Assembly: GCA_963816145.1 (NCBI GenBank) | Contig: CAWFJP010000013.1 | Location: 96,001-160,000, forward strand | Direction: 5' to 3' | DNA: 64,000 nt | Source of the DNA: an uncultured delta proteobacterium | Lineage (GTDB): Bacteria; Desulfobacterota; Binatia; UBA9968 | Shown: positions 21,116 to 46,585 of the stretch, piece after piece | Layout of the letters: the number at the start of each line of letters is the position of its first letter | Numbering within the stretch: the first letter of the stretch is position 1 | Notes under the pieces: model-generated | Told to the model about the DNA's origin: nothing | The model's database searches: none | The model's input: the letters and a program-made list of their open reading frames with translations, nothing else | Position numbers and translations under genes: made by a program

Positions 21116-21706
21116 ATGGCCAGGATCAAAGGTGTAACCGAATCTAATGCCAATGATGACGTGCGGCAGATTATCGCCGAGCAGAAGAAACGTCATGGTT
21201 TTGTCTCAAACGCGGCGCAGGTGTCCGCCATAAGGCCGACCATTCAGCAGGGAGTTCAGGCGCTTGCCAAGGGAATTCAGGATTCAGGACTGATCGCGCA
21301 GGAACTGCGCAATTTGGTCTGCGTCAGGACCGCGCATATCAATGGTTGTCCGTATTGAATTGACAGTAATGCATCCGGGGCGATGCAAAACGGCGCAGCC
21401 GCGGAAAAGGTCGAAGCGGCTTTGGGCGATTACAAGAGGAATCCGTTGTTTTCCTTGCGCGAGCGGCTGGCGCTGGAGTTGGCGGAACGGATGACCTACA
21501 CCAGCAAGCGGGTCTCGGATAGGTTCTTCAAGCGGCTCAAAAAACATTTTAGCGACGAGGAGCTGGTCGAATTAGCCGCGGTGATCGCACTGGAGAACTT
21601 TCGCAGCAAGTTCAACCCGGTTTTTGCCATCGAGGCGAATCATTTTTGCTCTTTGCCGGGAATCATAGAAGCTGCTGCCGCCGCCACGCGGCGCTTCCAT
21701 GAGTAA
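21116..21706 (+). CDS. AhpD/carboxymuconolactone decarboxylase-like selenoprotein (CPYU, Sec81)
   Basis: ORFs 20969..21358 and 21383..21706 are in frame across TGA 21356-21358, giving NGCPY-U-IDSN. The C-terminal half has FSLRERLALELAERMT and HFSDEELVEL AhpD motifs. Hairpin follows 11 nt downstream. Confidence 0.85.
21370..21387 (+). promoter_or_regulatory. Candidate bacterial SECIS element
   Basis: UGCAUC-CGGGGC-GAUGCA: 6-bp stem, G at loop position 2, 11 nt after the UGA. Confidence 0.75.
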
Positions 21707-42684: not shown

Positions 42685-43443
42685 TCACCCCGCGCGCATC
42701 TTGAGCAGTATCGGAATATCTGTGGTCCCCTGATACAGACGGAGTTCTTTTTCTTTGCTCTGCGCGGCGAGCATGGCCATGCGGTCGGCGAGTTCGTTGC
42801 CTTCGGTGCCGACATGGGCGGCGACATGGGTAAGGTTGAGCTGTTTCTTGATGCGTAAAAAGATCGCGTAGCAGTCCTGGATAATTTCCAAATTCTTGAT
42901 CTCGCCGCCGGGTTTCTTCCAGCCTCTTTTTTCCCAACCCGGCGCCCAACTGCGAATGCAGTTGATCGAGTACGCCGAGTCGCTGCAAATCTCGACGCTG
43001 TTGCCGATGTTGATTTCCGCTTCGGCCATGCGCAAGGCGTGGTAGAGCGCGTTCAGCTCGGCGGTGTTGTTGGTGCCCATCGGGTGGTATAGGCCAAACC
43101 ACAATTGCGCGAGCTTGCCGGCGCGATAGACGACGATGCCGGAACCGGCATTACCCGGGTTGGGTTCGCAGGCACCGTCGCAATAAATGCTAATGTCGAA
43201 CTGGTGCGCGGTATGCGCGGCCCGATGAGTGCTGTTCCGCGTGCCGGCTTTGGTAACGCCTGCGGTTTTCGACGGATTCGTTGCGCTGGCGCCGCAACCG
43301 AAGGCCTGCTCGGCTTCCGCCCGGGTCGCGAAGGACTTGAAGCGTGCCCCGGCAAACTTGTCGACCGCCCGCTGAGCGGTTGGCCAATCGGTGAAAACAC
43401 CGGTCTGCCGTCCTGACCATACCACGTAGAATTTTTGCGCCAT
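42685..43443 (-). CDS. rnhA: Ribonuclease HI with N-terminal hybrid-binding (viroplasmin) domain
   Basis: FYVVWSGRQTGVFTDW domain; DGAC.PNPG, TNNTAEL, DS.Y, GNELAD catalytic motifs. Confidence 0.92.
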   Translation of the reverse strand: MAQKFYVVWSGRQTGVFTDWPTAQRAVDKFAGARFKSFATRAEAEQAFGCGASATNPSKTAGVTKAGTRNSTHRAAHTAHQFDISIYCDGACEPNPGNAGSGIVVYRAGKLAQLWFGLYHPMGTNNTAELNALYHALRMAEAEINIGNSVEICSDSAYSINCIRSWAPGWEKRGWKKPGGEIKNLEIIQDCYAIFLRIKKQLNLTHVAAHVGTEGNELADRMAMLAAQSKEKELRLYQGTTDIPILLKMRAG

Positions 43444-43652
43444 GCTGCGTCGATCCGTTTATCTTAGAAATGAGTTCTTCAGGCTTTGGTTTGAATGGTC
43501 TAGCACAGTCGGTTTGATTTTTTCACCACGAAGCACCCAACACGGCAGAGCCGCAACAGATTTAGCAAGAAAATGTCCACCACGAAGTGTCCGTGAGCTT
43601 ACGCCCGTCTACAGAGTATGAAATTCCAGCCCCCCCTGCACGCCCGCCGAGT

Positions 43653-43722
43653 CGTCATCCCGGCGAAGGCCGGCATCCTGGCGACAGAGGGGGGATGGAT
43701 ACCGGCTTTCGCCGGTATGACG
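43653..43722. repeat. REP-like doublet palindrome
   Basis: CGTCATCCCGGCGAAGGCCGGCATCC ... GGATACCGGCTTTCGCCGGTATGACG. Confidence 0.75.
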
Positions 43723-43901
43723 GAAGTCCCATGCCAATTCGTCGCCCAGATCGTGCTTGGCATGTACATTCTAAGAAGGACACGAAGAGCACGAAGTTCG
43801 GAGTCTAGATTATTCGAACCCTTCGTTTCCAACGTGGAGAGAACACCTTCAAAGTAAACCCGCAAGCATCTAATAGCGTCAGATTTTGGTTCTAGCAATT
43901 C

Positions 43902-43918
43902 CGCGTCGCCCGGACGCG
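43902..43918 (-). promoter_or_regulatory. Candidate SECIS element in the selO 3' UTR
   Basis: mRNA CGCGUC-CGGGC-GACGCG, 12 nt after the first UGA and 3 nt after the second UGA; no U-tract. Confidence 0.75.
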
Positions 43919-43921
43919 TGA

Positions 43922-45418
43922 TCAGGTGCCTCAAAAAGTTTGGTAGCGCGCTCCTCCTTCGGTCGCTGGTTCGGCAAAGGCGGCAAACTCTGGCTGATCG
44001 TCGAAAGGATGCTCCAGGATATGCAGCAGTGTTTCGAAAGGCGCGTAATCGCCGCGTTCGACGGCGGCGCTCAAGGCTTCCTCGACGCGCTGATTGCGCG
44101 GAATAAACGCGGGATTAACCCGGCGCATCGCCTGCGCCCGCGCCATGGGGTCCGCCGCCTCGCGCGCCAGGCGCGCCCGCCAGCGGCTGCGCCAGAGATC
44201 ATACGCCGACGGATCGGCAAACAGGGCGCGAATCAATTCGTCGTTGCCTAATGCTGCATCGGCGAGGTAACGGAACGCCAACGTGTAGTCGACGTGCCTG
44301 CCTTCCATGGCGCTGAGAAAGCCGGTGGCGAGGTTGATATCGGCCTCATCCGCGCCGGTCAGTCCCAGCTTGGCGCGCATGCCGGTCAGCCAGTGGCGCT
44401 GGTATTGGTCCGGAAAGGCATGAATCACATCGGTGGCGCGGGCGATGGCACGATTATTATCCTCATCGATCAGCGGTAGCAGCGTCTCGGCGAGCCGCGC
44501 CAGGTTCCACTGCGCGATGCTGGGCTGATTGGCGTAGGCGTAGCGGCCTCGCGTGTCGATGGAGCTGAAGACCGTTGCCGGATCGTAATGATCCATGAAG
44601 GCGCATGGGCCGTAGTCGATGGTCTCGCCTGAGATCGCCATATTGTCGGTGTTCATCACGCCATGGATGAAGCCGACATGCATCCAGCTGGCGACGAGAG
44701 CCGCTTGGCGGTCGCACACGCGCTCAAGCAATTCCAAGTAGGGGGCCGTGCGGCGTTTCAATTCCGGGTAGTGGCGCTCGATCACGTAATCGGCCAAACG
44801 GCGCACCTTGTCTTGTTCGCCGCGGGCGGCGAATAGTTGAAATGTGCCGACACGGATGTGGCTCGCGGCGATGCGCGTCAAAACCGCGCCCGGTAGCGCG
44901 GTCTCTCGATAGACCGGCTCGCCGGTGACTACTGCAGCGAGCGCCCGAGTCGTCGGGATACCCAGCGCGTGCATCGCTTCACCGATCAAATATTCCCGCA
45001 ATACCGGCCCGAGCGCCGCCCGACCGTCGCCCCTGCGCGAAAAAGGCGTGGGCCCTGAACCTTTGAGCTGAATGTCGCGACGCCGTCCGTTGCGGTCGAT
45101 TACCTCCCCCAGGAGCAGCGCGCGGCCGTCGCCCAGTTGCGGCGAGAAGCCGCCGAACTGATGGCCGGCGTAGGCTTGCGCTAGCGGCAGCGCTCCTCCG
45201 GGCGTCTCGTTGCCGGCAAAAATCCTGGCGCCTTCATCGGAATCGAGGGCCGCGGCGTCGAGCCCCAATTCATCGGCCAACTGAGGGTTGAATTTGACCA
45301 TCCTCGGCTGCGCCACTTGCGCTGCCTTCCACGGCACGTAGAGACCCTCGAGTGCGCGCGCGTAGGTGTTGTCGAAGACAAAGCGTGCGGCGCTGGTTTG
45401 GTTAGGGACTTGCGTCAT
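43922..45418 (-). CDS. selO: Protein adenylyltransferase SelO/YdiU with probable Sec496 (YQTF-U-GT-stop)
   Basis: YAGHQFG, LGDGRA, QLKGSG.TPFSR.GDGRA, GFIHGVMNTDN, IDYGP motifs. The 3' end reads TAC CAA ACT TTT TGA GGC ACC TGA, matching the family tail YxTFCGT. Confidence 0.9.
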
Positions 45419-45604
45419 TGGCTTATTCCTTGGTCAGAGGGATCAGCGTCTCCTCGGCTCTCATTGTTCGCGAAATCAATAGAAATATCTAGAGCCGTTC
45501 GGAAGCACGGGCCGATTCCTCAGCATGACGCGCCCCTGGCGGCCAGTAAACTCGGCCACTTGGAATTTTTGACTTTGATGACGCCGCTCTGGTGATCGAA
45601 CGGT

Positions 45605-46585
45605 TTATGGCTTCCAACCAGCTTGGGTCAACTCGCTGTCGGCTTTCTTGGCAAAACTGAAATCGTAGGCGCGCTCGATGGCCACTTCCTTGGCGCCTTT
45701 GAGGACCTCGCGAACGATGTCGAGATCGTTTTTCTGGGTTTCTTCGTCGACCACGCCATTGGCGGTGAATGTACCGATCATGCCGTCGTAGGTGCGCGCG
45801 GCGAGATCTCTGTCCAACTCGGAGAATTTCATCATCGCCTCCATGGCGACCTCGCGGTTCTGCTTGACCAGGCGCAGGGCTTTGAGCAGGGCACGCGTGA
45901 ATCCTTGCATCAACTTGGGCTTGGTTTTGATGAATTGATCGTTGGTTGCGATGGTGCCCCAGGAATTTTTCACTTCTTTGCCGAGATACAGGATCTCTTT
46001 CATGCCTTGATCGAGGGCGGCAAAGCGTTCCTCCGAACTCAATAGCCCGGCATCCACGACTCCCGACTGAAGCGCCGCGAGGCGCTGCCCCGGCGGCAGG
46101 GCGAGAAAGGTCAAATCCTTGTTGGCGTCGAGGCCGTACTTTGCCGCAACCTTTTTCAACATAAACGTCGCCACCGCGGCGACGCCGGTTACGGCGATCT
46201 TCTTATTCTTCAGGTCTTTGAAAGCGCTGTACTGGGGCCGAACCATCAGCCATTGGAGCACCTGATCGGTGATGGCCAAGACGGTTTTTAGTGGCGCGTT
46301 GCCTTGAGTGACGGCGACCAGGGCGCTGCTGCCGGAACCGGTGAAATCCATTTCTCCGGCGAGCACCGCCTGAAGGCCGGGGGTGGAGGCCATGATGACG
46401 GTGTTGAGGTCGATCCCTTCCTCTTTCATGTAACCCCGCTCCTTGGCGAGCGGAAAGATAATGAATTGAAACGATTTCGACGGCAGGGTGACGTTGATTC
46501 TATCGAGGGCAAACACCGATTTGCCGGGCAGCAACAACATGCCGATCAGCAGCGGCGCGATCATCGACAGAGTGATTTTTTTCAT
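45605..46585 (-). CDS. NMT1/TauA-like ABC substrate-binding protein
   Basis: Signal peptide; AKERGYMKEEGID, DLKNKKIAV. Confidence 0.85.
   Translation of the reverse strand: MKKITLSMIAPLLIGMLLLPGKSVFALDRINVTLPSKSFQFIIFPLAKERGYMKEEGIDLNTVIMASTPGLQAVLAGEMDFTGSGSSALVAVTQGNAPLKTVLAITDQVLQWLMVRPQYSAFKDLKNKKIAVTGVAAVATFMLKKVAAKYGLDANKDLTFLALPPGQRLAALQSGVVDAGLLSSEERFAALDQGMKEILYLGKEVKNSWGTIATNDQFIKTKPKLMQGFTRALLKALRLVKQNREVAMEAMMKFSELDRDLAARTYDGMIGTFTANGVVDEETQKNDLDIVREVLKGAKEVAIERAYDFSFAKKADSELTQAGWKP

Follow-up and report, generated by a model that had tools for sequence, protein, structure and literature searches.

A SelO gene of an uncultured Binatia bacterium as a probable selenoprotein gene with its proposed SECIS hairpin beyond the stop codon

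Introduction

Where does the SelO gene of an uncultured Binatia bacterium end, and which residue stands third from the end of its product? The window analysed here is a stretch of 64,000 nucleotides (nt) from an uncultured delta proteobacterium (contig CAWFJP010000013.1 of assembly GCA_963816145.1, positions 96,001 to 160,000), whose minus strand carries a gene for a SelO/YdiU protein adenylyltransferase. As delimited by a gene caller, this gene's open reading frame (ORF) has 495 codons and ends ...R-Y-Q-T-F TGA (43931..45418, minus strand). An earlier note, drawn from the sequence alone, had remarked that the codons GGC ACC TGA follow this TGA and that a small hairpin stands just beyond them; it proposed that the first UGA is read as selenocysteine (Sec) under the direction of a selenocysteine insertion sequence (SECIS) lying entirely outside the coding region, and that the second UGA terminates translation. 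The computational evidence presented below makes it very probable that the gene encodes a genuine selenoprotein version of SelO, an AMPylating pseudokinase, ending ...Y-Q-T-F-Sec-Gly-Thr, and supports the central inference of the earlier note, a third-last Sec with a hairpin beyond the ORF, in every comparative check except covariation.

Results

The SelO gene and the end of its reading frame

Reading of the minus strand and translation through the first TGA confirm the end ...YQTF-TGA-GGC-ACC-TGA and give a gene of 498 codons plus stop (43922..45418, minus strand; M1...F495-U496-G497-T498). The first TGA (43931..43933), the proposed Sec codon, corresponds to residue 496, the third from the end; it is followed by Gly497-Thr498 (43925..43930; GGC 43928-43930, ACC 43925-43927), which are translated only if the first TGA is recoded, and by the second TGA (43922..43924), which is the real terminator. 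The identity of the protein is supported by Pfam PF02696 (E 5.1e-119, residues 19-467), by the NCBIfam YdiU family NF000658 (584.6 bits, cut-off 431) and by SelO proteins of known structure from P. syringae, E. coli and their relatives (E 4.7e-105 to 5.6e-103), with the P. syringae structure 6eac_A aligning over residues 12-496 (E 4.7e-105). It falls below the cut-offs of both NCBIfam 'equivalog' models (444 vs 850; 414 vs 900) and thus belongs to another subfamily than those of Pseudomonas and E. coli. The counterparts of residue 496 (of 498) are Cys486 in 6eac_A, which has 488 residues, and Cys476 in 6k20_A, which has 478, and the column of residue 496 holds Cys or TGA in all 41 rows of the alignment (TGA having been written as C before aligning).

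The assembly to which the window belongs comprises 7.8 Mb in 31 contigs with 56% G+C. Contigs of four soil metatranscriptome libraries, which may contain DNA, cover only parts of the SelO coding region; they leave 43818-43994 uncovered and are hence uninformative on the 3' end of the gene.

TGA and TGC at the same codon among Binatia relatives

The read-through protein was searched against its own genome (G000) and 40 relatives, together 41 genomes of the order (one of them, G005, has no SelO match and a partial selB match, and counts only in the 41-genome totals). SelO is found in 19 of the 41 genomes, and the codon in question is TGA in 12 genes, the window's included, and TGC in 8. As both codons occur among close relatives, the TGA is not a private mutation. 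In all 12 TGA forms the first TGA is followed by GGN ACN TGA, as was to be checked according to the earlier note, and the differences concern third positions only (GGC, GGT or GGG; ACC, ACT or ACA), a pattern of variation which argues for translation past the first TGA. The terminator after Gly-Thr is TGA in 12/12 Sec forms of this set. The TGC forms end C-G-T followed by a stop that is TGA in five, TAA in two and TAG in one.

This distribution bears directly on the explanation that the TGA is a sequencing or assembly error, or the mark of a recent pseudogene in a single metagenome-assembled genome (MAG). The assembly is in 31 contigs with an estimated contamination of 6.7%, and the SelO gene of one relative (G018) is broken, which might lend colour to such a view; yet TGA-GGN-ACN-stop is shared by over 20 assemblies that are independent of one another and by 71 clusters of database proteins, and the rest of the window's ORF is intact and 77-86% identical to its orthologs. 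The chance of an artefact is therefore vanishingly small, and this explanation is effectively refuted. Most of the genomes compared here are MAGs. The broken gene of G018 (L038/L041, C13:143333-144815) lies in two pieces, the second with two TGA and one TAA extra; it keeps TGA-GGT-ACC-TGA and the hairpin, the latter with one extra loop base.

In a large protein collection, each of the 120 proteins nearest to that of the window is at least 81% identical to it; 71 of them stop at T-F or T-Y, exactly before the codon in question, 48 have the end C-G-T and one is truncated, and the word selenoprotein is absent from the source names shown for these 120.

A hairpin beyond the second UGA

The proposed bacterial SECIS, CGCGUC-CGGGC-GACGCG, occupies 43902..43918 on the minus strand, wholly within the 3' untranslated region (UTR) beyond the second TGA, and consists of an arm CGCGTC (43913-43918), a loop CGGGC (43908-43912) and a second arm GACGCG (43902-43907). 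It starts 12 nt past the first TGA and, after TCA, 3 nt past the second, exactly as the earlier note had described. The core of the hairpin is a stem of five base pairs (bp; GCGUC/GACGC) with an optional sixth pair, so that the element measures 15-17 nt. Its apical loop starts 18 nt after the first UGA in the window and 19 nt after it in most relatives, whose linker is GTCA instead of TCA and places the hairpin at 13 nt instead of 12; the window geometry falls within the published bacterial range of 16-37 nt from UGA to loop (PMC10778597). The predicted minimum-energy fold of the window's 3' region contains the hairpin.

A hairpin of the form (A/G/U)-(C/U)-GCGUC-CGGGN-GACGC is present at fixed distance in 12/12 TGA forms of the relatives set. 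In three TGC forms (L022, L023 and L026) a mutated copy remains, with a stem mismatch and loop changes; three more (L025, L029 and L042) show a fainter resemblance, judged by eye only, and the last two (L031 and L036) show none. The hairpin is thus kept where the codon is TGA and decayed or absent where it is TGC, whereas equal conservation in both would, according to the earlier note, have refuted its proposal.

A wider sample was obtained by scanning a collection of species-representative genomes for the pattern Y-x-T-[FY]-TGA-GGN-ACN-TGA, of which the hairpin is no part. The scan yielded 47 loci, 27 of them SelO ends and 20 chance matches without SelO. All 26 SelO ends of the Binatia clade (73-86% identical) carry the hairpin, with loops CGGGC, CGGGG, CGGGU or CGGGA and, in one case, CGUGC together with a compensating U-A to U-G stem change; over the 27 Binatia rows of the alignment, the second and fourth loop positions of C-G-G-G-N are invariant G. 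Conservation peaks at the hairpin and fades around it: mean pairwise identity over 26 distinct 3' regions is about 0.90 for the hairpin core (an underestimate, since the one-base-shorter linker of the window is out of register), 0.65 for the linker, 0.41 for the next 15 nt and 0.26 for the 12 nt after that. Past the second TGA the sequence is not kept in frame among relatives, the linker being variable with a length difference of 1 nt. SelO genes 80-83% identical and with the same hairpin also occur in MAG records labelled Acidiferrales, Pseudomonadota, Chloroflexota or Deltaproteobacteria (L066, L067, L098, L084 and L102); L098 is sequence-identical to a genome placed in the window's genus, and the submitter labels look inconsistent.

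How often such a hairpin would stand behind a TGA by chance was estimated in G000 itself. Under a strict rule (stem of at least 6 bp with at least five G-C pairs, starting 10-14 nt downstream, with a loop of at most 6 nt containing GG), it is found behind 8 of 1,596 (0.5%) TGA-ending ORFs of at least 300 codons, compared with 12% under a loose rule. Five of these eight are selenoprotein genes or strong candidates, namely SelO and four GrdB-like TGA genes, of which one is Pfam-confirmed and three were judged by a UG[ST] motif and the shared hairpin. The hairpin does stand above chance by position, not by energy. Nor does it resemble an intrinsic terminator, since it lacks a U-tract: the sequence 3' of it is GAAUUGC in the window and A-rich in relatives, and a scan of 43300-45800 gave no terminator-like site at the hairpin. 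An Rfam cmscan of 43400-44200 at E<=10 returned three matches, all below gathering scores and none at 43902-43918.

An independent case in Reyranellaceae

The remaining SelO end of the pattern scan belongs to a Reyranella MAG (L094, 60% identical) and reads Y-R-T-Y TGA GGT ACC TGA, with a hairpin CUGCUCC-GUC-GGAGCGG 12 nt past the first TGA. A search of 81 Reyranellaceae genomes found this SelO subfamily in 68, with one in-frame TGA in three. All three TGAs stand at the same SelO codon and are followed by Gly-Thr-stop encoded by GGN ACN; one of the three genes terminates with TAA, which indicates that a second UGA is not required and is not part of the signal. Each Sec form has a hairpin CUGCUCC-NNN-GGAGCGG (loops GUC, GUC and GGG) 12-13 nt after the TGA, unrelated in sequence to that of Binatia. 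The ends examined in this family were those of the 30 best-scoring loci and of two extra TGA forms, out of the 68 genomes with a match, and this hairpin occurs in none of the 30 Cys forms examined.

In a tree of 71 sequences, in which the Reyranellaceae rows kept their last three residues and the trait columns were trimmed from the other rows, the three Reyranellaceae Sec forms make up one clade (support 100), nested in a larger Reyranellaceae clade (29 Cys and 3 Sec forms; support 99) which stands apart from that of Binatia (support 95). The same Cys codon thus became TGA independently in two lineages, each with its own hairpin at the same distance. Nothing else speaks as strongly for the hairpin being a SECIS as this coincidence of spacing between unrelated hairpins.

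The Reyranellaceae belong to the Alphaproteobacteria, and their SelO proteins (L130-L161) are 56-66% identical to the Binatia protein, compared with 35-59% for the other families of the window's phylum sample (L043-L064). In the tree, their clade is the sister of the clade holding Binatia. An old horizontal transfer of this SelO subfamily may account for this relationship.

Cys as the older state, and a reversal to it

Both trees omit incomplete SelO matches (in the first set those ending before query position 484 or starting after 20; in the Reyranellaceae set those with fewer than 430 aligned residues), the subfamily ending ...SCSS and eight duplicates. In a sample of the phylum, SelO is present in 23 of 401 genomes. 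The 10 full-length members of the window's subfamily in this sample are 46-58% identical and all end [TF/TY]-C-G-T, and a second subfamily of nine sequences ends ...S-C-S-S. The existence of a bacterial subfamily ending Y-x-T-F-C-G-T, put forward as established in the earlier note, is borne out by these ends and by those of Reyranellaceae. As the distant members of the subfamily all end C-G-T, Cys is the older state.

Within the tree of 39 unique sequences, 20 Sec forms and three Cys forms make up a single clade with a Shimodaira-Hasegawa-like approximate likelihood ratio test (SH-aLRT) support of 98. The three nested Cys forms, which adjoin a Sec form, are exactly the carriers of the hairpin relic (L022, L023 and L026), the pattern expected of a reversal from Sec to Cys followed by decay of a SECIS that had become useless. 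Loss of the Sec trait does not explain the Cys forms, since their genomes keep selB (G023, G012, G003 and G024) or a Sec-containing selD (G004, G007 and G008). The presence of SelB was also tried as a discriminator between Sec and Cys forms and rejected: selB is found in 36 of the 41 genomes of the order, 10 of the 12 with a TGA-form SelO among them, and in 6/6 tested Reyranellaceae genomes. All three Reyranellaceae Sec-form genomes have it.

Selenium system and selenoproteome of the genome

The earlier note had asked for the Sec machinery, and G000 has all of it: a tRNA-Sec (selC; 74.2 bits, gathering score 47) as well as selA (616.5 bits), selB (417.4 bits) and selD (380.1 bits), with the machinery together on contig C30 and selD itself containing one in-frame TGA. 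Selenoprotein genes were sought by a scan for in-frame TGA codons flanked on either side by sequence with coding potential and followed by a hairpin at 8-22 nt. From its 426 raw candidates, a stricter coding score together with a Cys within four residues selected 30, and 18 went to Pfam. A Pfam domain spans the in-frame TGA in 15 of these 18 (L162-L174, L177 and L179): four are Prx-like (W-U-P-x-C), four AhpD/CMD-like (C-x-x-U), two UGSC, two GrdB-like, two further thioredoxin-fold proteins and one a rhodanese. The remaining three comprise a DUF411 match away from the TGA and two genes with no Pfam match; three more GrdB-like genes are found at C5:356147, C8:47714 and C31:463378. Taken at face value, the predicted genes show the Binatia, an uncultured soil lineage, to have a rich selenoproteome.

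The hairpins of these selenoprotein genes start 9-18 nt past the UGA and have the G-rich loops GGC, GUG, GGU, GUC, AGUU, CGGGA and CGGGGC; that of SelO, at 12 nt and with loop CGGGC, lies mid-range among them. Formate dehydrogenase was sought as a further SECIS comparator, and there is no TGA in any of the 11 molybdopterin-domain matches of G000.

The Sec system also bears on the possibility that the first UGA is read through without Sec, by near-cognate Trp or Cys or by Cys carried on tRNA-Sec under scarce selenium, with the hairpin acting as a general stimulator. Small hairpins 3' of stop codons can stimulate read-through in other systems, and the computed evidence does not tell which residue enters. 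The full SelB system of the genome nevertheless speaks for Sec, as do a geometry that agrees both with the published range and with the genome's other SECIS elements, the conserved G residues of the loop, and the alternation of TGA specifically with TGC (Cys), which is typical of selenoproteins. Read-through by another residue is accordingly very unlikely.

A second predicted selenoprotein gene lies in the window itself, on the plus strand at 21116..21706. It encodes an AhpD-like protein of the carboxymuconolactone decarboxylase family with the motif ...N-G-C-P-Y-U-I-D; its TGA is at 21356-21358 and is spanned by the Pfam CMD domain (E 3e-10), and a hairpin UGCAUC-CGGGGC-GAUGCA follows at 21370-21387, starting 11 nt past the UGA. 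In the output of a gene caller this gene would come out split or shortened.

Other candidates for a C-terminal Sec in G000 (C30:365058, C30:9994 and C15:40636) look like ordinary stops with a hairpin behind them and were not retained. One of them deserves description: a 316-codon ORF at C30:365050-366006 (minus strand) ends ...A-F-S TGA GGG TGA TAA and has a 9-bp hairpin 11 nt after its first TGA. It probably represents an ordinary stop with a terminator-like hairpin, there being no Cys or redox context.

Is the first UGA a true stop?

Several observations weigh against recoding. The hairpin is small, and in folding energy it does not differ from shuffled sequence (z 0.14 over 76 nt; z -0.18 over 39 nt), so that structure alone proves nothing, and the minimum-energy fold of one relative (L024) lacks the hairpin. 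Covariation, which the earlier note had hoped to find, is essentially absent in the Binatia clade: the stem is nearly invariant and the scores are no better than those of shuffles, the one pair that changes on both sides is the optional sixth, which is C-G in 7 cases, U-A in 3 and unpaired in 18, and there are two U-A to U-G changes besides. Support for the structure comes instead from its conservation along with the TGA and from the second lineage with a hairpin of its own. The loci of the pattern scan are no evidence for codon conservation, because the pattern demanded GGN-ACN-TGA, and the spacing range of the comparator hairpins in G000 is partly built in, because that scan required a hairpin 8-22 nt after the TGA. 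An apparent match of the SelO element to the selD SECIS of the same genome (GUC-CGGGY-GAC) is weak evidence: in selD the motif also encodes G-P-G-D, and it is not kept in the selD of three out of four relatives. In two of the 12 TGA-form genomes (G019 and G009, MAGs about 91% and 93% complete) selB is not found at E<=1e-60. Lastly, TGA forms are not alone in having a hairpin behind the SelO stop: in 7 of the 30 Cys forms of Reyranellaceae another strong hairpin follows immediately on a TAG stop.

Could the first TGA, then, simply end the protein, which would lack its last three residues, with GGN-ACN-TGA and the hairpin forming an RNA element such as an mRNA stability determinant or a protein-binding site? 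The 71 of 120 database proteins that end at Phe or Tyr would be correct as they stand, and the unexceptional energy, the absence of covariation and the hairpins right after the stop of some Reyranellaceae Cys forms would need no special explanation. Against this, the six bases after the TGA vary at third positions only, in the 12 Binatia genes as in the three of Reyranellaceae; the protein would lose its conserved regulatory Cys; where the codon is TGC, the hairpin has decayed; TGA was gained in a second lineage along with a hairpin of unrelated sequence but equal spacing; Sec is in active use in this genome; and a terminator, as one form of this explanation, is countered by the missing U-tract. 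A true stop is thus very improbable, and recoding of the first UGA as Sec is retained.

Two of the features just mentioned call for a description of their own. The hairpin of the Reyranellaceae Cys forms has an 8-bp stem, GGCCGAGC-GAA/AAA-GCUCGGCC, and lies 0-1 nt after the TAG stop in L145, L147, L151, L152, L153, L156 and L159, seven genes that fall into one and the same clade of 12 Cys forms; a repeat element, a terminator and the relic of an old SECIS are all conceivable. A lineage-wide SECIS motif GUC-CGGGN-GAC, common to SelO and selD, was considered and dropped, as its sites are mostly not credible and the selD copy is not conserved: among nine sites in G000, five lie 13-20 nt after a TGA, and three of those are not in credible genes. 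Copies at C16:87770, C17:69681 and C18:152339 lie 15-20 nt past a TGA, each with TGT before the TGA; one copy runs antisense to an ACP-like ORF, another stands upstream of htpG, and a third falls within a membrane-protein gene but out of its frame. These three are probably due to chance, odd as a triple TGT-TGA is. When every hairpin with the loop CGGGN was admitted (1,465 sites in G000), no peak of TGA distance emerged either.

A possible redox partner of residue 496

In E. coli, Cys476 forms a regulatory disulfide with Cys272 of the activation loop and is the equivalent of the eukaryotic Sec, according to a review (PMC7278666). E. coli Cys272 aligns with a Phe of the window protein, 12 residues past a Cys which is itself residue 272 (codon 44603..44605, minus strand; motif DYGPCAF) and lies at the start of the activation loop. 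This window Cys272 (D-Y-G-P-C) is invariant in 39/39 unique sequences of the TF[C/U]GT subfamily and is a candidate selenylsulfide partner of Sec496, by analogy with the disulfide of E. coli; the pair would form a redox switch.

A further difference between Sec and Cys forms concerns the residue five positions before the Sec or Cys. It is Arg, His or Gln in 71/71 Sec-type database proteins and Cys in 38 of 48 Cys-type proteins, counts which are not independent as the proteins are kin; the Binatia Sec forms have Arg or His there and no nearby Cys, and in the window protein the position (residue 491; codon 43946-43948 on the minus strand) is Arg. An exception is the Sec-form gene L040/L081, which has Cys there. 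The Cys at -5 may be a resolving Cys needed only by the Cys form. The link between Sec and loss of the -5 Cys suggests a changed redox chemistry of the SelO tail, not a simple substitution for Cys.

Discussion

The identity of the gene, the homology of its codon 496 with the third-last Cys codon of other SelO genes, the Sec machinery of the genome and the fact that TGA, Gly-Thr codons and hairpin are all conserved are matters of observation, from which the following mechanism is inferred as the most parsimonious reading. At the first UGA, the ribosome would meet SelB with Sec-tRNA(Sec), kept in place by the hairpin, which starts 12 nt further on and whose loop begins at 18 nt; Sec would be inserted, two further codons read, and translation terminated at the second UGA, which at 3-4 nt from the hairpin would be too close for SelB-mediated recoding. 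This escape of the second UGA would follow from the known spacing requirement of bacterial SECIS elements such as that of E. coli fdhF. In the protein, Sec would replace the conserved third-last Cys and form a selenylsulfide instead of a disulfide, probably with the invariant Cys272. The evidence leans, if not far, towards a broader proposition: that a minimal SECIS of 15-17 nt, wholly past the stop, evolved at least twice at the same SelO codon, can be lost again, and accompanies a Sec that alters the redox chemistry of the tail.

Why human SelO carries Sec is an open question, and the bacterial set of Sec and Cys SelO proteins is suited to asking it. The set is large, natural and made up of close relatives (71 Sec-type and 48 Cys-type among the 120 nearest proteins), and lends itself to probing the role of selenium in the redox switch. 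With the SECIS outside the ORF, the native protein can be expressed and mutated (U496C, hairpin variants) without changing other residues. If the proposed reading is true, these genes supply a 'U-G-T-stop-hairpin' module that is small and leaves the protein sequence untouched, together with a bacterial system in which to study why selenium is used by SelO. The database entries seen for these genes are three residues short, the key residue included, and are named as ordinary YdiU/SelO; C-terminal Sec sites of this kind escape annotation pipelines.

How far does this case go beyond known systems? Before 2025, all prokaryotic SelO were stated to have Cys (PMC7278666, a review). The impression given by the earlier note, that no Sec-containing bacterial SelO was known, is out of date: a Sec-containing 'selenoprotein O-like' protein of Desulfosediminicola ganghwensis IMCC35004 was predicted by deep-Sep in 2025 (PMC12013277), and a Sec-SelO family is listed with WP_136798779.1 in a review of 2026 (PMC13188914). 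According to these accounts, the Desulfosediminicola protein resembles that of the window in its family (COG0397/PF02696), its single predicted Sec, the occurrence of TGA and Cys homologs in bacteria and a SECIS-like structure after the TGA. Desulfosediminicola belongs to the Desulfobulbia, whereas the genes described here are from Binatia and Reyranellaceae; its Sec may or may not occupy the same C-terminal codon, and Desulfosediminicola is absent from the record titles of the loci that match Y-x-T-[FY]-TGA-GGN-ACN-TGA in the species-representative scan. The main text of the BSepDB paper mentions neither SelO nor Binatia; a full-text literature search gave nothing relevant linking Binatia with Sec, as judged from the search listing; and a literature search for natural bacterial SECIS elements past a stop gave only engineered cases and general statements, supplements possibly holding more.

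Vertebrate SELENOO is of the same family and likewise has a single Sec near the C-terminus, and we take the human protein to be 669 residues long. The third-last position given for the vertebrate Sec in the earlier note stands as regards human Sec667, which with Cys664 is redox-active (PMC3994087), and depends for the rest on this assumed length. SELENOO differs in its distant kink-turn SECIS, in its use of SBP2 and eEFSec, in its CxxU motif and in its mitochondrial targeting peptide, a comparison made at the level of features and not by direct alignment of vertebrate sequences. The E. coli, P. syringae and Salmonella SelO/YdiU proteins (6k20, 6eac and 6iii) share the fold family over nearly the whole length, with the third-last residue aligned; they have Cys and end ...SC-x-x, whereas the window subfamily ends TF[C/U]GT. 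The functions described for the characterised bacterial proteins are AMPylation and UMPylation, with the regulatory Cys272-Cys476 disulfide (PMC7278666).

As to the signal, the E. coli fdhF SECIS has a bulged U, GU in the loop and a spacing of 11 nt, and a G in the loop is reportedly the rule applied to bacterial SECIS elements by bSECISearch. The SelO element resembles this canonical type in being a hairpin directly downstream of the UGA, with G residues in a loop that falls in the 16-37 nt range; it differs in measuring only 15-17 nt and in being non-coding. In E. coli, a bacterial SECIS located in the 3' UTR can direct the insertion of Sec near a C-terminus, as engineered for mammalian thioredoxin reductase (PMC10778597). 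In that construct (Arner et al. 1999, as cited in PMC10778597) the Sec stands near the C-terminus, followed by a stop and by a hairpin in the 3' UTR, and the protein is unchanged, as proposed here for SelO; the construct is man-made and uses the fdhF SECIS of E. coli, whereas the SelO hairpin is natural, shorter and unrelated in sequence. Bacterial Sec-SelO is thus already known as a computational prediction, of which the window provides a well-supported new example; what is new are the Binatia and Reyranellaceae lineages, two independent origins, the reversal from Sec to Cys with a fossil SECIS, and a natural SECIS wholly in the 3' UTR.

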